In this document: positions 15,732 to 62,065 of the stretch, piece by piece | How the letters are laid out: each line of letters opens with the position of its first letter | Position numbering within the stretch: position 1 is the first letter of the stretch | DNA from: Candidatus Poribacteria bacterium | Lineage (GTDB): Bacteria > Poribacteria > WGA-4E > WGA-3G | Direction: 5' to 3' | Length of the DNA stretch: 64,000 nucleotides | NCBI GenBank assembly: GCA_965205015.1 | Contig: OZ242029.1 | Coordinates: 384,001 to 448,000, forward strand | Translations under genes and position numbers: made by a program | Notes under the pieces: generated by a model | Told to the model about the DNA's origin: nothing | Seen by the model: only the letters and a program-made list of their open reading frames with translations | Databases searched by the model: none

Positions 15732-15764
15732 TTTTTGCTGTAGGGCTACGCGTAGGGTCCAAAG

Positions 15765-15855
15765 ATCATAAGCCCAAGCAACGCACCGGGCGGATATACG
15801 GAGAGAATATTTCTCGAAAAAAACGGCTGACCGAACCGCAAGGTAAATTAAAAAA
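15765..15855 (+). repeat. Gene-start repeat, diverged copy ending at the pafA ATG
   Basis: CTGACCGAACCGCAAGGTAAATTAAAAAA|ATG matches the reverse complement of 46336-46365. Confidence 0.7.
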
Positions 15856-17214
15856 ATGAAACGTAGAATTTACGGATTAGAAACTGAATTCGGAATCATC
15901 TGGACCCCTGATGCCCCGCGTAGAAAGACACTCACCGTTCAGAACGTCGTGATGTACCTCTTCCGTGAAATCGTTGCTGGGAGAATGTATCCCGATGTCT
16001 TCCTTGAAAACGGTGCAAGGTTCTACCAAGACATCGGATGCCACCCGGAATACGCGACCCCTGAATGCGATGATGTCACCGAACTCGTCGCTCACGATAA
16101 AGCCGGCGAACGCATCATCACACGGCTCGCCAGCACGGCGGAACGGCGCATGCGCAACGACGGGTTCTATGGAAAAATCTCTATCTTTAAAAACAACTTG
16201 GATACCCCCGGAAATACTTATGGATGCCACGAAAATTATTTGATGGAGCGACATGTCGATTTCCGTCAGCTGGCATCTCAGTTGATCCCGTTCTTTGTAA
16301 CCCGACAGGTTTTCGCAGGTGCCGGAAAAATCAAACCGAGTCATCGGGGTTACTACGCAATTTCGCAACGTGCCGAACACATCCGAGAGGAAATTTCTAT
16401 CGGTACCACAACGGCACGCGGGATTATCAACACACGCGACGAACCCCACGCCGACCGAGAGAAATACAGACGCCTACACGTGATCGTCGGAGATTCCAAT
16501 ATGTCCGAATTTTCGACTTTTTTGAAGGTGGGTACAACCGGTATTATCCTCCGCATGATTGAAGACAACTTTATTGAGCAGCGATTCGCGCTCCGCAATC
16601 CCGTCAAAGCGATCCGTGATATTTCCGACGATACGACATGTACACATCCCATCGAACTCCAAAACGGGAAGCGACTCACGGCTGTCGAACTCCAATGGCA
16701 ATATTTAGAATGCGCAAAACGATATCTCGAACACGCGGAATCCGACTCAACGACGAACCAAGTGATGGCACGCTGGGAGTACGTCCTGACATGTTTGGAA
16801 AGCGATCCGATGCAGTTGGACAGAGAATTGGATTGGGTGATTAAGTGGAAGTGGCTGCAGACCTACCTCACAAAGCGTGAACTTGAATGGGATGCCCCGC
16901 AAGTAAAACACTTAGATTTAAAATACCACAACGTGCGTCGGGGGGAAAGTCTCTACTACGCCCTTGAAAATCGGTCAGAAACCGAGCGAATTGTTAGAGA
17001 TGAGCAGATTCGCCATGCTGAGCAATTTCCACCTGAACGGACCCGAGCGAAATTCCGAGGCAAGTTTATCAAGAAAGTTAACGAGGGCAAAGTCCTGTGC
17101 GGTGTCAATTGGAGCTACATTCAACTTTATGAACCGTATCAGATCCTTTACCTCTCAACAGATCCTTTTAAACCCGAGTTTGACGAAGCAAGTCGAACAA
17201 TTTATTCAATCTAA
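15856..17214 (+). CDS. pafA: Pup--protein ligase PafA
   Basis: RRIYGLETEFG, FLENGARFY.D.G.HPEYATPECD, no Dop loop, last gene of the operon. Confidence 0.95.
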   Translation: MKRRIYGLETEFGIIWTPDAPRRKTLTVQNVVMYLFREIVAGRMYPDVFLENGARFYQDIGCHPEYATPECDDVTELVAHDKAGERIITRLASTAERRMRNDGFYGKISIFKNNLDTPGNTYGCHENYLMERHVDFRQLASQLIPFFVTRQVFAGAGKIKPSHRGYYAISQRAEHIREEISIGTTTARGIINTRDEPHADREKYRRLHVIVGDSNMSEFSTFLKVGTTGIILRMIEDNFIEQRFALRNPVKAIRDISDDTTCTHPIELQNGKRLTAVELQWQYLECAKRYLEHAESDSTTNQVMARWEYVLTCLESDPMQLDRELDWVIKWKWLQTYLTKRELEWDAPQVKHLDLKYHNVRRGESLYYALENRSETERIVRDEQIRHAEQFPPERTRAKFRGKFIKKVNEGKVLCGVNWSYIQLYEPYQILYLSTDPFKPEFDEASRTIYSI

Positions 17215-43196: not shown

Positions 43197-44678
43197 TCAG
43201 CCTGATGGGATCAACTTCCGCAACGTCTGAATCAGTGTGCTTTCTGAGAACCATTTACCTGCCACACGCCACACACTGCTTGAAAACGTCGGGTACACAT
43301 GGATCATCCCGCTCAATTTCCGCAACGGAATTCCTTCTTGCATCGCCAGGATATACTCGTGAATGACCTCACCGGCGTTTGCACCGACGAGATGAACCCC
43401 TAATATCTTTCCAGTCCACCGACTCGCGATGACTTTGCTGAAACCGTGTGTCTCGCCTTCCGCGACGGCTCTGTCAACATCCCCTTGGTCCAGTGTGAAC
43501 ACATCAACGTCCCCATACTTCTCGCGCGCTTCCGCTTCTGTTAATCCGCAACGCGCAACTTCAGGATCACAGAAGGTTGTCCACGGTACGACGGCATAGT
43601 TAATCGTTTGAGAGAGCGGGAAGAAGATATTTCGGAGGAGCAGCTGCGCCTGAAACGCCGCAACGTGCGTGAATAGATAATGTCCGATCACATCGCCTGC
43701 AGCATAGATATTTTTCACGCTTGTTTGAAGTTTACTGTTCACCTCAATCCCACGTGTGCCGATCTGCACTCCGATTTTGTCAAGTGCTAAACCCTCAACG
43801 TTCGGTGCGCGTCCCGCGGCAATCAAAATGTTATCAAAAGACTGCACTACAGTTCCATTTTCACTATCGCTAAACGCGACAGTTGTGCCTTCCTGATTTT
43901 TCACAACGCCTGCGATACCCGTATTCAGTCGGATCGTGATCCCTTCCTCGCGGAGGTAACGCAGCATCTGTTCAGAAACATCGGCATCCTCTTTCGTCAG
44001 AATGCGTTCACTCCGTTGCGCTATCGTCACATCCGCACCGAGGCGATGAAACGCTTGTCCGAGTTCAATACCGATTGGACCCGCACCTACAACGAGCAGC
44101 CGGTTCGGGAACGCTTCAAGATCCCAGACGTTTTCACTGTCAAGATAGCCACAAGATTCTAAACCCGGTATAGGCGGGGCAACGGGACGGGACCCCGTGC
44201 TAATCACGAATTTCTTGCTTTTGAGGGTGCGGGTCTGACCGCTTTCAGTATCCTCCACAACAAAACTCTCAGCGGACTCAAAATGCCCGTTGCCGAAGAT
44301 AACATCAACCCCCATCTCACGGAATCGCTCAGGGTTGTCGTGTTCCTCCTCTATGGCATGTTGGGTACTTCTCACATACGCCATCACACGTTGCCAATCA
44401 GGCGGTGTCGAGGTGCCTGCAATGCCGTATTTCTCAGCGTCTTTGACGTAATTCGCGACCTTCGCTGCCTTCAGGAGTGCTTTGGAAGGCACGCATCCCG
44501 TCCAGAGGCAGTCACCCCCGATACGGTGTTTCTCCACGAGCGCGGTCTTTTTACCCAATTTTGCGCCCGCCACCGCAAGCACGAGTCCGGCACTTCCGCC
44601 GCCGATAATTGTTACATCATTCTTTAATTTTTCCTTGCGGAGTAATTGCGTAGGTTTCATGCTTGAATTGCCTTCCAT
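43197..44678 (-). CDS. Class-I pyridine nucleotide-disulfide oxidoreductase (mercuric reductase/lipoamide dehydrogenase-like)
   Basis: IIGGGSAG, GGDCLWTGCVPSK, GAGPIG.E, HVYPT; lacks the C-terminal Cys pair of MerA. Confidence 0.88.
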   Translation of the reverse strand: MEGNSSMKPTQLLRKEKLKNDVTIIGGGSAGLVLAVAGAKLGKKTALVEKHRIGGDCLWTGCVPSKALLKAAKVANYVKDAEKYGIAGTSTPPDWQRVMAYVRSTQHAIEEEHDNPERFREMGVDVIFGNGHFESAESFVVEDTESGQTRTLKSKKFVISTGSRPVAPPIPGLESCGYLDSENVWDLEAFPNRLLVVGAGPIGIELGQAFHRLGADVTIAQRSERILTKEDADVSEQMLRYLREEGITIRLNTGIAGVVKNQEGTTVAFSDSENGTVVQSFDNILIAAGRAPNVEGLALDKIGVQIGTRGIEVNSKLQTSVKNIYAAGDVIGHYLFTHVAAFQAQLLLRNIFFPLSQTINYAVVPWTTFCDPEVARCGLTEAEAREKYGDVDVFTLDQGDVDRAVAEGETHGFSKVIASRWTGKILGVHLVGANAGEVIHEYILAMQEGIPLRKLSGMIHVYPTFSSSVWRVAGKWFSESTLIQTLRKLIPSG

Positions 44679-44690
44679 CTATTCGCCCTC
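44625..44690 (-). repeat. Gene-start repeat, 3' half, supplying the N-terminus of the oxidoreductase
   Basis: Reverse complement GGAAGGCAATTCAAGCATGAAACCTACGCAATTACTCCGCAAGGAAAAATTAAA resembles 60617-60670. Confidence 0.75.
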
Positions 44691-44787
44691 CAAATGTAAA
44701 GCAAAGACAAATTATGCCATTTAAGGCATAATTTCATTACGGGCTAGGGTTTCGCAGGAATGCCCAGACTAACAGTCTATGCTACGC

Positions 44788-46335
44788 CTAGCGGCGGTGG
44801 CGCAGAACTCTACCGGGGAGCTGCCCCGTCACGTCCCCATTTTCAACAACCGAAACGCCGTTGACGAACACATAGTTTACACCGACGGGAGATTGCACCG
44901 GATCGAACCACGTAGACCTATCTGCGACAGTCGCCGGATCGAAGACGACGATATCCGCCGCAAGTCCTCGATCAATTCTGCCGCGATCGGAGAGTCGAAA
45001 ACGCTCCGCTGGAAAACCGCTCATTTTATAGACGGCTTCTTTCAACGAAATCAACCGGCGTTCGCGAACGAATTTGCCCAGATATTGCACGAAGCATCCG
45101 TAACTCCGTGGATGTGGATGCGGAATGTTGTAGACACCGTCGCTGGCAATCATCATGCGCGGATGGCTCGCAGTACGGTTCAAAATGCGTTCGTTTTCTT
45201 CGGGCGGGGTTGCCCACGGCATCACAAAGGTTTCAATCGCGGCTTCTTCTTGAATGAAATCGAAGGCGAACGCTTCCTGCGACTTCCCTTCGCTTGCAGC
45301 AGCTTCGGCGAGCGTCATCCCGATAAATCTACCCGACCGGTTGTAACCCACGATCTGGTTGCCGTCGCGCAATTCACCGCGCAGATATGCGATCGATTTT
45401 TCTCGGACTTCGGGGTCCTGTAGATGTGCCAACATATCAACGGGTGCGCCGGTCTGATATTCCATCGGGAGCATCATGGCGAGATGCGTCATACCGGCAG
45501 GATAGAGATAGGACTCAAACGTCAAATCTATCTGTTCCCTCTCTACCCGTTCAAGCACGTCCGCGGCTTCATCGTCAACGCGCTCGTGCGAAATATGCAC
45601 AGGAATTTCGGCACGTTGCGCAATCTCGATCGTCTCCTCCCACGCCTGTTTTCTGCCGAGAATGCGGTAGCGGATGTGCGCAGCGTAGATGGCATCATAA
45701 GCCGCCGCAATTTTTGAGAGATACACCAGTTCGTGCAAATCGGCATTCGCGGAGGGTTGATAGTCGAGTCCCAAGCAGAGACAACACGCACCCGCCTCCA
45801 ACCATTCACGCGTTGTGCGTTCCATCACTTTCAACGCATCGGCAGTTGCTGGGCGCGGATCCCATCCCATCGCACCGAGGCGAACCGCACAATGCGGCAC
45901 CTGTGGATAGAGGTTCGCCGGGATTCGTCCTTCAAATATGCTGAGATATTCATCTGGTGTTTGCCAATTGAGTGGGACCTCCGCATCGCCATAAGCAAAT
46001 TGCGTGTAGTGCCACATCTCTTGTGCCTGTTCTGGTGATAAAGGTGCCCATCCGAAACCATCCGGCGCGGCTAAATGCGTCGTCACACCTTGACTGACAG
46101 CGGCGAACTGGTCTCGACCGCCGAGCAGAGCGATTTCAGAATGCACGTGCACATCGACGAAACCCGGGCAGACAACCTGTCGCTCCGCAGAAATTCGACG
46201 CGGTGTCTCCGCTTCCGAGAGGTCCCCGATGGCGGCAATCCGGTCACCCTGAATGCCGACGTCCGCGATAAAGGGGTCCCGCTTACCCGTTCCGTCAACG
46301 ATGTTCCCGCCTGCAATAATTGTATCAAATCTCAT
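44788..46335 (-). CDS. N-acyl-D-amino-acid deacylase (amidohydrolase family)
   Basis: PGFVDVHVH, VHISH, IASDG, HPRSYG, ADIVVFDP. Confidence 0.88.
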   Translation of the reverse strand: MRFDTIIAGGNIVDGTGKRDPFIADVGIQGDRIAAIGDLSEAETPRRISAERQVVCPGFVDVHVHSEIALLGGRDQFAAVSQGVTTHLAAPDGFGWAPLSPEQAQEMWHYTQFAYGDAEVPLNWQTPDEYLSIFEGRIPANLYPQVPHCAVRLGAMGWDPRPATADALKVMERTTREWLEAGACCLCLGLDYQPSANADLHELVYLSKIAAAYDAIYAAHIRYRILGRKQAWEETIEIAQRAEIPVHISHERVDDEAADVLERVEREQIDLTFESYLYPAGMTHLAMMLPMEYQTGAPVDMLAHLQDPEVREKSIAYLRGELRDGNQIVGYNRSGRFIGMTLAEAAASEGKSQEAFAFDFIQEEAAIETFVMPWATPPEENERILNRTASHPRMMIASDGVYNIPHPHPRSYGCFVQYLGKFVRERRLISLKEAVYKMSGFPAERFRLSDRGRIDRGLAADIVVFDPATVADRSTWFDPVQSPVGVNYVFVNGVSVVENGDVTGQLPGRVLRHRR

Positions 46336-46340
46336 TTTTT

Positions 46341-46442
46341 AAATTTTCCTTGCGGTTCGGTCAGGTCGGTTCTATGTTTGAAGTGCCTTTTCGTTTATCC
46401 ACCTGCGCCGTTGTTGCAGGTTTCGTTTTCGTGTTAATTTTC
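46341..46442 (-). repeat. Gene-start repeat, full copy bounded by GAAAATT
   Basis: Reverse complement aligns over about 95 nt with 60565-60668 and ends 5 nt before the ATG at 46335. Confidence 0.8.
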
Positions 46443-49671: not shown

Positions 49672-49871
49672 GGGAAACACCCAAGCAAAAACACACCGTT
49701 GTTAGAGAATTTGCCTTGCCGTCTGCTGAGAAATCTTGTATACTTTAATAATTAAATCTGAACTATGATTTTTACGATTCTCAGACTTACCATGATTATT
49801 GGAGGTCCGACCATTCTATCATCTATCGTGGTAAATCACATAAATCACAAACCTTGGAGGAACCTCCCATT

Positions 49872-50795: not shown

Positions 50796-51769
50796 GCACC
50801 TTCCCTGTCTATCGTCCGAGGCGACTTCGCGCAAATGAGAATTTGCGACGATTGGTTCGCGAGACCACGCTCTCTGCTAATGACCTTATCTACCCGATGT
50901 TTGTCGTTCATGGACATAACACCGCGACCGAAATTTCCGCGATGCCCGGGTGCTATCAATACTCGGTTGATACCCTCGTCATCGCCGCAAAAGAACTCGC
51001 CACGCTTGGAATCCCAGGAACAATTCTGTTCGGAATCCCAGAGGCAAAAGACCCACTCGGTTCTGAGGCATACGCCGACGATGGGATCATCCAACAAGCC
51101 GTTCGAGCCATCAAAGACGCTGTGCCCGATCTGCTCGTCATGACGGATGTGTGTCTCTGCGAATACACCGATCATGGACACTGCGGTGTCGTTGCAGCTG
51201 GCGAAGTACAAAACGATCCGACACTGGAACTCCTCGTTAAGGAGAGCCTGTCGCACGCCCGTGCCGGTGCCGATGTCATCGCACCGTCAGATATGATGGA
51301 CGGTCGCGTCGGCGCAATTCGTGACGCGTTAGATGAAAGCGGTTATGAAAACATCCCGATTATGGCATATTCCGCCAAATACGCCTCCGCCTTCTACGGA
51401 CCCTTTCGGGAAGCGGCGGAATCAACACCCCAATTCGGAGATCGACGTGCCTATCAGATGGATCCAGCCAATGCAGAAGAGGCGTTACGGGAAGTCGCAT
51501 TGGATATCCAAGAGGGCGCGGACGTTCTCATGGTGAAACCCGCCCTCTCCTACCTCGACGTTATCCATCGGGTCAAAACAGAATTTCAGGTGCCTGTTGC
51601 GGCTTACAACGTCAGCGGTGAATACGCTATGATTAAAGCCGCCGCAGAAAACGGTTGGATCGATGAAGAGCGGGTCGCTTTGGAGGTCCTCAACAGCATC
51701 AAGCGCGCAGGGGCGGATATAATTTTAACCTACTTTGCGAAGTCCGTTGTCGAGTGGCTCAACGATTAG
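50792..51769 (+). CDS. hemB: Porphobilinogen synthase (Zn type)
   Basis: [40 protein letters not shown]. Confidence 0.97.
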
Positions 51770-51895
51770 GGTTACGGAACATGGGTTCGACTTAGAACAG
51801 ACTTTTCTCTTTCCGCTCAACCTGGGGAAATCCGCAGAAACACCCAAGCAAAAACACCTACGAAAACTAATAACTGACAACTTTGGAGAAATACT

Positions 51896-60550: not shown

Positions 60551-61603
60551 ATGGTCAGTAAAATGAAAATTAGAAGCGAAAACAAAGCCCGCAACAACGG
60601 CGCGGGCGACTCGTCGGGAAGGCACGTCAAACATGAAACCCACTCAATTGCTCCGCAAGGGAAAATTAAAAAACTTGTAATTGGTACACGCGGCAGTCAA
60701 CTTGCCCTTTGGCAGTCACAATTCGTCAAAAATCAATTGGAACGCCATTTCCCTACCTTGGAAATCTCCCTGAAGACCATCAAAACCACCGGCGATACAA
60801 TCCAAAACCGCTCGTTAGTTGGACTCGGCAAAGGTGTTTTCACCAAAGAGATAGAAAATGCCCTCTTAACCGGCGGCATCGACCTCGCTGTCCACAGTTT
60901 GAAAGACCTCCCGACAGAATTGCCGGAGGGGCTTTGCATTGCCGCCATTCCGACGCGAGAAGACCCACGCGATGTCCTCGTCACAGATACAGGACTCCCT
61001 TTAGAAGACTTGTCGGAAGGGGCGAAGATCGGCACCACAAGTCCACGCCGAAAGGCGCAGCTCCTCTATATCCGCCCAGATCTGCGAGTCGTTGACGTGC
61101 GAGGCAACATCGATACACGGTTGCGCAAACTTCACGAGACCGACCTCGACGGAATCATCCTCGCCGCCGCGGGCATCAAACGCCTCCTCGAACCAGAAAT
61201 TATCACACAATATTTTGACACAGAACAGATGGTCCCGGCAGTCGGGCAGGGCGCGCTCGCGATTGAAATACGGGAAGGTGACGATAGGGTTGAACAGCTG
61301 CTTCTGCCGCTGAACGACCCCGCAGCAACGGTAGAAATCACAGCGGAAAGGACTGTATTGGAAAGCCTCGGCGGCGGATGCCAAGTGCCGATTGGCGCGC
61401 ATGCGAAACATGTCAACGGTGAACTCTCGCTCATCGGCGCGGTTTGTCATCCAGACGGCACGCGACGCATTGTGGCGCGCACCACGGGAACACCAGATAC
61501 AGCACAGCATTTGGGCGAAGGTGTTGCCGAAAAACTTCGGAACAGTGGCGCAACAGAATTGTTGAAGGAACAGGAGAACGATCAGTCAGTGACCCAAACC
61601 TAA
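60551..61603 (+). CDS. hemC: Hydroxymethylbilane synthase with repeat-derived N-terminal insertion
   Basis: IGTRGSQLALWQ, GKGVFTKE, AVHSLKD, RGNIDTRL, GGCQVP. Confidence 0.97.
   Translation: MVSKMKIRSENKARNNGAGDSSGRHVKHETHSIAPQGKIKKLVIGTRGSQLALWQSQFVKNQLERHFPTLEISLKTIKTTGDTIQNRSLVGLGKGVFTKEIENALLTGGIDLAVHSLKDLPTELPEGLCIAAIPTREDPRDVLVTDTGLPLEDLSEGAKIGTTSPRRKAQLLYIRPDLRVVDVRGNIDTRLRKLHETDLDGIILAAAGIKRLLEPEIITQYFDTEQMVPAVGQGALAIEIREGDDRVEQLLLPLNDPAATVEITAERTVLESLGGGCQVPIGAHAKHVNGELSLIGAVCHPDGTRRIVARTTGTPDTAQHLGEGVAEKLRNSGATELLKEQENDQSVTQT
60565..60668 (+). repeat. Gene-start repeat inserted in frame in hemC
   Basis: GAAAATTA direct repeats at 60565 and 60661, 96 nt apart; removing the insert gives MKIKKLVIGTRGS. 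Confidence 0.8.
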
Positions 61604-62065
61604 AGGATTGGGCTTGTCCACTACGCCAACCAAGGCTATAGAGTGGGCAAGGGTAACTCATTGACTACCGTAAAATATCGCAGTTTCTGGAGCGTGGTAG
61701 CTCCAAACAATGGTTAGAGAACGCTATACCGAACTGGTAGTAGGTATAGTTAAGGGTGCTCCCCAAGCCTTAACCCTCTTGGAAACTGTGATCGGGATGG
61801 GGCAACATATACCCGCTTTTGCGGAGAGCCGAAAGGTCATTACCTGTTTTCTTGATAGCACCGGGTCAGGTCTCAGTAGTAAGTGGTGACAGCCTTGTGA
61901 ACCGAAGCAGCCCACTGGAAAGAATCGCCTACTGGATTGTGGCGAAAAAACAACCAGCACTTTTTCTATCGGTTTCTTTTTTTTAACCTGGACCTCTGGT
62001 CCTTTCCAAGAGGGCGGTGTTTCCTCCCAAGCCTAAAAGACTTGGGTCTCCACACCGTAATATAG
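61585..62065 (+). mobile_element. Non-autonomous IS200/IS605-family element with HEARO/omegaRNA-like RNA and no IscB ORF
   Basis: Starts GTCA with hairpin CCCAAACC-TAAA-GGATTGGG; ends with a related hairpin CCCAAGCC-TAAA-AGACTTGGG inside CGGTGT..ACACCG; followed by ATGA; empty site restores the hemC/cobA overlap. Confidence 0.75.

Follow-up and report, generated by a model that had tools for sequence, protein, structure and literature searches.

A dispersed repeat abutting translation starts in one Poribacteria lineage: a probable 5' leader, old and largely domesticated

The stretch of DNA analysed here, referred to as the window, comprises 64,000 nucleotides of a Candidatus Poribacteria genome (contig OZ242029.1, positions 384,001 to 448,000) and contains several copies of a repeat, roughly 105 nt long (~90-108 nt), located where genes begin. 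A first-pass annotation made from the sequence had proposed that these copies represent a small mobile or cis-regulatory RNA element. We find that the repeat is a genuine, abundant and lineage-specific dispersed family. Its size, its sense orientation, its phasing to start codons, the covariation of its hairpin, the conservation of orthologous copies, their presence or absence in relatives and their fusion to open reading frames (ORFs) are all directly observed. The reading that we favour, with a probability of roughly 0.55, is that the element is an old and largely domesticated dispersed 5' leader that would provide a weak Shine-Dalgarno (SD) sequence followed by an A-rich spacer, and that is sometimes translated.

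Four sense-oriented copies were identified in the window, preceding or entering hemC, an amidohydrolase gene (labelled "deacylase" in the first pass and hereafter), a pyridine-nucleotide oxidoreductase gene and pafA. Ten full copies, those at hemC and the deacylase gene among them, served to train a covariance model (R1), which, when run over the whole window with filters off, returned exactly these four places, the only other match being noise (E 4.7). Pairwise blastn comparisons link the hemC copy to the deacylase copy (110 nt, 74.5% identity, E 6e-15) and to the oxidoreductase copy (57 nt, 86% identity, E 2e-14), and the deacylase copy to the pafA copy (33 nt, 94% identity, E 2e-9). The placement of four related copies, each sense to its gene, was therefore as first claimed, confirmed by both blastn and R1.

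The hemC copy (60565..60674, plus strand; R1 113.4 bits as a training member) is full length, lies between the hemA stop codon and the conserved hemC body, and is translated in frame as the hemC N-terminus. The deacylase copy (46334..46442, minus strand; 117.2 bits, likewise a training member) is also full and ends at the gene's ATG: the start codon of a 515-aa ORF, whose product matches Pfam Amidohydro_3, lies at the last bases of the element. These two copies carry the GAAAATT direct repeats that had been reported, at spacings of 96 nt (60565/60661) and 94 nt (46442/46348), respectively. The oxidoreductase copy had been taken for a 3' half; it is in fact full length (44619..44765, minus strand; 77.7 bits; recovered as 44619-44736(-) with E 2.6e-12 in the whole-window run) and is interrupted in its hairpin loop by a 37-nt secondary insertion (44695..44731, minus strand), identified by alignment with other copies. 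The same loop insertion is found in the orthologous copies of genome G003 (locus L077) and at L005:7746-7885. An ORF runs through the oxidoreductase copy; the ATG at its 3' end is out of frame, and internal ATGs at -60 and -42 are in frame. The pafA copy (15750..15857, plus strand; 31.9 bits, E 1.6e-4) was present where it had been placed, its extent being corrected to that of a full but strongly diverged copy, which ends at the pafA ATG with the tail CCGCAAGGTAAATTAAAAAAATG followed by MKRRIYG.

We also noted a decayed-looking copy at ~51763-51862 (minus strand), recognisable by the succession CGTAG, GCGGAT, GAAAG and AACCCATG with a tail eroded to CCGTAACCC; R1 gives no match to it. This copy holds the short module GTTTTTGCTTGGGTGTTTC, which elsewhere occurs as a secondary insertion after the hairpin of other copies.

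To place these copies in a wider context, an exact pattern taken from the conserved 3' half was matched against one genome for each of ~185,000 species. It returned 12 stretches, all of them in metagenome-assembled genomes of Candidatus or uncultured Poribacteria. In five complete Poribacteria chromosomes (4.9-5.9 Mb) R1 matched every one of the 150 candidates scored per genome, so that each holds at least 150 copies. An unselected 400 kb of the G001 chromosome contained 18 R1 matches at E ≤0.01, and 784 kb of unselected sequence contained 41 copies of the tail motif, from which we extrapolate ~250-350 copies per genome. The collection thus bears out a dispersed repeat family with, by extrapolation, hundreds of copies per chromosome, whose members are ~75-80% alike in sequence. 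Across 61 sampled genomes of the phylum the distribution was sharply uneven: ten were saturated (47-63 of 63 scored candidates match), five gave one or two matches and 46 gave none, and the family therefore belongs to one sub-lineage. It matches no Rfam family: Rfam yielded no match in the window at gathering score and nothing at E ≤1 over four copies in loci L062, L069 and L058. One Rfam motif bears the name Poribacteria-1, but none of the Rfam models matched. No description of the element was found in the Poribacteria literature, and no element of comparable kind in more general searches, both conducted mostly at the level of listings and abstracts.

The position of the element relative to genes is its most distinctive property. 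Among the 18 unselected copies, ten have the ATG or TTG of a long ORF (227-728 aa) at -2/-3 relative to where the model ends. A comparable start falls inside a 12-nt window at a random position 8.9% of the time, and at an assumed ~2% per 3-nt window the chance of observing ten in 18 is of the order of 1e-12. The 41 tails show the same phasing, with a start codon 11-13 nt after the invariant CCGCAAGG in 23 (4, 14 and 5 at the successive offsets) and a long ORF running through the element in eight more. We then classified 77 unique copies, a set that includes orthologues and loci picked for high score: 38 have a start codon at the 3' end, 18 are traversed by an ORF, four are followed by a tandem copy, eight have a start 7-120 nt downstream (several behind a duplicated tail), two lie at a locus edge and for seven no gene start was found. 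Wherever a gene start adjoins a copy, the two have the same orientation. The association of the family with translation starts, always in the sense orientation, is supported, and so is the supply of AAGG and an A-rich spacer whose distance to the start codon is fixed.

The genes that follow share no evident function, in agreement with the earlier remark that the hosts are unrelated. We counted 39 distinct downstream proteins among the collected copies, and the 20 that were scanned fall into unrelated Pfam families. They include an amidohydrolase, a sulfotransferase, a sulfatase, an ABC transporter, UDP-glucose dehydrogenase, a TPR protein and an E1 beta subunit, along with the products of tmk, hemC, cobA and pafA.

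Alignment of the copies reveals a common anatomy. A poorly conserved 5' arm of ~20 nt is followed by a short GC-rich hairpin, kept by compensatory and G-U changes; next comes a centre of ~45 nt that is conserved and in which no pairing was detected (GCGGAT, GAAAGGCAC, TCAAA, AACC), and finally a tail that hardly varies, CCGCAAGG(T/A)AAAATTAAAAA, directly against the ATG. The compensatory change from CCTGC/GCAGG to CCCGC/GCGGG noticed in the first pass is real. Over 75 distinct copies the 6-bp stem shows changes on both sides at four of its six pairs (37 such cells) and 94.8% of cells are paired, compared with 21-41% in slid registers; none of 500 shuffles reached the observed score. G-U pairs on the sense strand outnumber A-C pairs 30 to 5; this would weakly support a sense-strand RNA, because most of the G-U pairs come from one subfamily. 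The invariance claimed for CC-GCAA-GG also stands (the CC..GG of CCGCAAGG is unchanged in 75 of 75 copies), but precisely for that reason it is uninformative as evidence of pairing. Support for structure is thus limited to one 6-bp hairpin and does not extend over most of the length. Candidate long-range helices (GCGGAT/TCCGC, ACGT/ACGT, and positions 55/56 with 73/74) were rejected, offering nothing beyond invariant or two-base contacts, and a conserved upstream ORF was likewise discarded, the internal ATG (CAAACATGAAACC) being confined to a subfamily. A short form of the element was also seen (L067, minus strand, offset 11949 of the reverse-complemented locus), which is without the central 45 nt and passes from 5' arm and hairpin directly to AGGAGG, an A-rich spacer and ATG.

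Orthologous copies are strongly conserved. Their identity is 96.0% (2681/2793 positions), compared with 91.5% for the first 300 nt of the adjoining coding sequence (CDS), 81.6% for third codon positions and 87.4% for the 100 nt upstream, such that the element changes ~4.6 times more slowly than third codon positions in this set of 26 non-independent pairs from ten loci, six of them picked by score. In the four syntenic, unselected loci the element is at least as conserved as third positions in 13 of 14 pairs. The constraint rises from the 5' arm to the tail, with variable sites per position and locus falling from 0.24 to 0.03.

The sites themselves are not uniformly occupied. The window was compared with the syntenic 80-kb stretches of five chromosomes (G001-G005), genomes that are 85-95% identical, and at most sites the presence of the element differs. 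The hemC site is filled in the window only. The oxidoreductase site is filled in the window and G003, and is empty in G001, G002, G004 and G005, where a GGAGGG SD precedes a start at GTG. The deacylase site is filled in all but G004 (G002 retains the 3' half only), as is the pafA site in all but G004, and the cobA site is filled in G001, G003, G004 and G005, and in neither the window nor G002. Seven polymorphic sites were aligned (hemC, cobA, oxidoreductase, deacylase, pafA, a site E and a gene encoding 1224 aa). In filled and empty alleles the homology begins at the start codon or a few bases before it, and the sequences upstream are unrelated.

Two expectations of simple insertion did not survive these alignments. 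An empty site with a single GAAAATTA occurs at none of the seven polymorphic sites. The interpretation of GAAAATT as a target-site duplication is likewise not supported: AAAATTA stands at the 5' end in a minority of copies, by eye ~15 of 75 flanks. In these it may be left over from the tail of a preceding copy, since AAAATTA is shared by tandem copies. Insertion into the -10 boxes of leaderless genes was considered as a source of the flanking AAAATTA and rejected, since empty alleles carry ordinary SD leaders and the general upstream profile shows no T at -12. At site E, upstream of the gene at window ~56043, G001, G004 and G005 have two or three tandem ~35-nt units (CACAAACTGAAAGTTTATGCTACAA...) that carry a -10-like TGCTACAAT; the units are missing from the window, G002 and G003, each of which has a different upstream region.

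The hemC locus provides a case of an element that has entered a protein. As now read from the ORF list and an alignment of the window with G021, the hemC ORF spans 60563..61603 on the plus strand. Its ATG at 60563 is conserved in G021, and the ATG at 60551 is not (GCG in G021, where ATGAAAATTAGAAGC is kept). In four aligned relatives the hemA stop codon is followed by six A's and ATGCACAACTCG..GTAATTGG, reading MHNSLVIGTRGS. The window has the element in place of ATGCACAACTCG..GTAATTGG, and those 12 nt, including the native ATG, are lost. The conserved hemC body can consequently be reached only from ATG 60563, through the element. The insert is in frame, as originally observed (96 nt, 32 codons); the proposal that its removal restores an ancestral start at MKIKKLVIGTRGS is not supported, because relatives start MHNSLVIGTRGS and the window no longer has that ATG.

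A protein search with this hemC over 61 genomes, 58 of which gave a match, found that G021 alone matches from residue 1, with 89% identity and a 348-aa frame that is open through the element, and so has the same fused form. In the other 57 the similarity begins at query residue 8-38 (at 31-38 in 51), and five of the six earlier-starting matches contain stop codons. Several substitutions, mostly amino-acid-changing by our own reading, and one 3-nt indel separate the element of G021 from that of the window; two C-to-T changes in the G021 hairpin retain pairing as G-U. The frame of the extension is kept and its peptide is not conserved between the two. A metagenome scan for the hemC junction returned no matches.

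Other genes have followed a similar path. An in-frame ATG at -42 within the element took over as start codon in the oxidoreductase gene (window and G003), in tmk, in a sulfotransferase gene and in a SIS-domain gene. In the cobA gene of four genomes it is a GGAGGG-N7-ATG inside the element that took over, and there a TTGAGA-17-TATAAT promoter lies at the element's 5' edge. At the hemA-hemC junction of G004 (L043:2399-2502) the place of the element is taken by an unlike insert of 104 nt. This insert likewise ends in an A/T-rich tail before the hemC ATG, has seven matches in G004, one in G001 and none in G005, and is a second, low-copy leader-like repeat.

How might such a module act? We infer that the element functions as RNA. 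It would be transcribed within the mRNA and make up the whole untranslated region from the transcription start, or from the upstream cistron, to the start codon. AAGG(A) would pair with the canonical anti-SD CCUCCUUU and the A/U-rich stretch would be an unstructured spacer, and together these would make the module a self-contained translation-initiation region. The family would have expanded long ago in one Poribacteria lineage and now appears old and mostly fixed, under purifying selection and presumably of benefit to the host, with copies occasionally replaced by other members at the same site. Where a gene's own ATG was lost, an in-frame ATG of the element would take over and the element would become translated.

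Several observations fit transcription through the element. A gene in the same direction precedes 12 of the 18 unselected copies, in four cases at a distance of ≤30 nt, and the ORFs that traverse the element (18 of 77 copies) need transcription from upstream. The promoter at the 5' edge of the cobA element fits as well. Five genomes share one conserved sigma-70-like promoter at the 1224-aa gene, and the stretch between promoter and ATG holds 0, 0, 1, about 1.5 or 2 elements, the two element-free leaders being different from each other and of ordinary SD type. As regards pairing with the ribosome, the 16S 3' end is canonical (CCTCCTTT), and ordinary genes of the organism carry GGAGG near -10. 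An extended anti-SD complementary to CCGCAAGG was rejected given this canonical 3' end; the longest complementary words between consensus and 16S (7-9 nt) fall at internal positions and were taken as chance.

A number of results weigh against this reading. The AAGG of the tail is located at -16..-13, upstream of the usual SD peak near -10, and its pairing with the anti-SD covers only 4-5 nt; from these values it would be a weak SD, with a spacing that is long but workable. For ten of the 41 tails no start was found at the fixed offset and no ORF passes through, such that the earlier wording "only at gene starts" was too strong. Mutual-information and diagonal scans found no helix besides the hairpin, the folding energy of whole sense-strand copies is not below that of shuffles (z -1.05 to +1.38), and the conservation of ~45 unpaired nt is not accounted for by a leader of this type. 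The conservation estimate itself is partly affected by score-picked loci, which favour similar pairs, and at locus g64 the element is less conserved than its CDS. The pafA leaders of the window, the G001 group and G002 are only 58-61% alike beside coding sequences that are 93-95% alike; this site holds different family members in different lineages, the leader having been swapped. The RNA evidence is in favour but weak: in a relative, contigs assembled from two RNA libraries span hemA, the element and hemC, yet contigs cannot show ends or strand and may contain DNA, and stretches lacking cover and a high summed depth over the repeats speak neither way. Lastly, the tail contains a hexamer near TATAAT at exactly -12..-7, with at least 4/6 matches in 62 of 77 copies.

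This hexamer raises the question of whether the element is a portable promoter, its (T/A)A(A/T)AAT tail being a -10 box from which transcription begins on the A of the ATG or beside it and yields leaderless or nearly leaderless mRNAs, while the conserved upstream boxes would bind a sigma factor or regulator. Taking the A of the ATG as +1 puts the hexamer at -12..-7, and the fixed distance of 11-13 nt between CCGCAAGG and the start, the paucity of RNA structure in the conserved sequence, and copies that begin inside or ≤30 nt from the end of the preceding gene would all suit such a promoter. No usable -35 box was recognised with it, however: in 75 of 77 copies the best TTGACA match at 16-18 nt spacing is ≤3/6. 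In our reading of the tails GG, not TG, stands before the hexamer, and the organism uses a canonical TTGACA-17-TATAAT at its rRNA operon and in the left ends of insertion sequences (IS). The upstream promoter retained before the elements of the 1224-aa gene and the through-running ORFs also speak for transcription from further upstream. Three divergent, back-to-back pairs of elements sharing their 5' ends (L031:1405-1609, L033:1403-1608 and L012:5497-5721) point both ways. They fill entire intergenic regions, as paired promoters might, but two of the three have no ORF of ≥80 aa starting at either outer end and the third has one on one side only. On balance the transcribed 5' leader is favoured by the sequence evidence, and the leaderless promoter, while a live rival, seems unlikely.

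A second possibility is that the conserved single-stranded boxes are read by a lineage-specific trans-acting protein or small RNA, making several hundred mRNAs one post-transcriptional regulon. This would explain why paralogues and orthologues alike conserve ~45 nt in which no pairing is seen, in a family confined to one clade, and it is consistent with the behaviour of the boxes AAGGCACGT and AACCCACGT, which lie 18 nt apart and co-vary (GG/CC to CG/CG in ten copies). The downstream genes show no common theme, and CsrA, the obvious GGA-binding candidate, is absent from the five genomes searched; regulation of the CsrA type through the two AAGG/GGA motifs was accordingly rejected. We regard a regulon as very unlikely, noting that it would extend the leader reading rather than exclude it.

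The third alternative dispenses with host function. A selfish, non-autonomous element of MITE-like kind (from miniature inverted-repeat transposable element) might insert in A-rich DNA before starts and be tolerated through a chance SD. Its all-or-none distribution in the phylum, the variable occupancy of sites between close genomes, tandem copies with duplicated tails, secondary insertions within copies and the AAAATTA found at both ends of a subset are what such an element would leave. Several hallmarks of transposition were nevertheless not seen. No terminal inverted repeats of ≥8 nt (seed 6) occur in the four full copies with 10-nt flanks, and none of the polymorphic sites shows a clean insertion with target duplication. 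No pair of non-orthologous copies in the collection is ≥90% identical, four pairs flagged as L009 paralogues being the deacylase orthologue cut off by the locus end; there is hence no sign of recent transposition, and the mobility favoured by the first-pass annotation is not supported as a current activity. The slow change of orthologous copies also runs counter to a functionless passenger. Nor was a long form of the element found in ~784 kb, where hairpins without a tail (4 of 33) are short forms. Taken together, these results make a purely selfish element improbable.

The search for a mobilising or autonomous partner was confined to Y1 transposase loci and found none with ends related to the element. 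A scan of ten Y1_Tnp loci with the element profile and motifs gave a sole match, a neighbouring copy outside the IS (L090), and mobilisation by IS200/IS605 or a REP-associated tyrosine transposase (RAYT) was thus rejected: Y1 transposases are present, and their IS ends bear no relation to the element. These IS200/IS605-like elements form two groups, one of 1765 nt (L087, L092, L093) and one of ~1.88 kb (L088-L090, L094), with 3-8 matches per genome. Their left ends (L087, L092, L093, L090) have a near-consensus promoter with TTGACA, TTTACA or TTGATA, 17 nt, and TATAAT or TATACT.

Returning to the domesticated leader, we tentatively suggest, as a possibility that the evidence makes worth stating although we hold it doubtful, that the copies are interchangeable leaders forming one regulon, read by an unidentified factor, and that they spread, and are still exchanged between sites, through a mechanism keyed to translation starts themselves and not to a target sequence in the DNA. 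The arguments for it are that in four independent genes the ATG marks the point where filled and empty alleles cease to be homologous, and that different family members occupy the same site in different lineages.

Two further features of the window were recorded. Downstream of hemC, towards cobA, ~390 nt of non-coding sequence (61585-61970, plus strand) recurs at several other places in every related chromosome, 73-75% identical. HEARO RNA (RF02033) is weakly matched by the first 143 nt, at 29.8 bits (E 3e-4) where the gathering score is 83, and the stretch may be a relic or relative of an IscB-type guide RNA. Separately, RNA-library contigs from a close relative have 24 different letters in place of the 103 nt at 49747-49849 (joint 49746-49850), a segment in a 5' region that is not a member of the family.

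If the leader reading is true, ~5-8% of the genes in a major group of uncultivated sponge symbionts share one translation-initiation cassette. It would be unusual in that most copies stand at a fixed distance from start codons, supply the ribosome-binding region, evolve more slowly than the adjoining coding sequence and sometimes become the N-terminus of a protein. The family would offer a natural case of modular, reusable 5' untranslated regions, and possibly a handle on global translational control. There is also a practical consequence for annotation, as failure to recognise the element will lead to miscalled starts and N-termini in genes such as hemC, cobA, tmk and the oxidoreductase.

Bacterial genomes commonly contain small dispersed repeats, some of them with promoters. 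The Correia elements of Neisseria are dispersed repeats of ~100-150 nt, often found beside gene starts, that can be co-transcribed and can alter expression; they have A/T-rich, -10-like ends, terminal inverted repeats and a TA duplication, and occur in both orientations. The Poribacteria element is similarly small, dispersed and close to gene starts, with a -10-like A/T-rich end, but unlike Correia elements it has no inverted termini and no clean duplication, and is sense whenever a start adjoins. REP/REPIN-RAYT systems and IS200/IS605-derived elements share with it a (G)TAG just 5' of a short GC-rich hairpin, in genomes that hold Y1 transposases. Here, in contrast, the stem is 5-6 bp and the conserved tail has no REP counterpart, and the Y1 genes reside in IS elements of 1.77-1.88 kb whose ends and flanks lack the element's motif. 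Rickettsia palindromic elements are small repeats that end up inside expressed ORFs. The same applies to pneumococcal BOX elements, which can supply the start codon of expressed ORFs, ORFs that lacked a good SD (PMC3049150). Both kinds insert within or beside genes and are not known to keep a fixed phasing; in the Poribacteria family translation is a minority outcome (18/77) that follows the loss of a gene's own ATG.

The closest class in concept is that of the putative mobile promoters (PMPs) of Matus-Garcia, Nijveen and van Passel, which were defined on the region -150 to -50 at ≥80% identity and of which most families are pairs (PMC3575422); the commentary on them also names the Correia elements of Neisseria. 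Like PMPs, most of which have no Rfam match and a mechanism of spread that is likewise unexplained (PMC3575422), the element is a highly similar non-coding sequence before unrelated genes of one genome, and similar upstream sequence does precede non-homologous genes here, as the 39 downstream proteins attest. In contrast to PMPs, the family has hundreds of copies at ~75-80% identity, and its defining last 25 nt abut the start codon and include the SD. The Poribacteria element therefore resembles PMPs and Correia-type repeats in concept, and differs from them in having no inverted ends and in being strictly sense, phased to the start codon and constrained in sequence.

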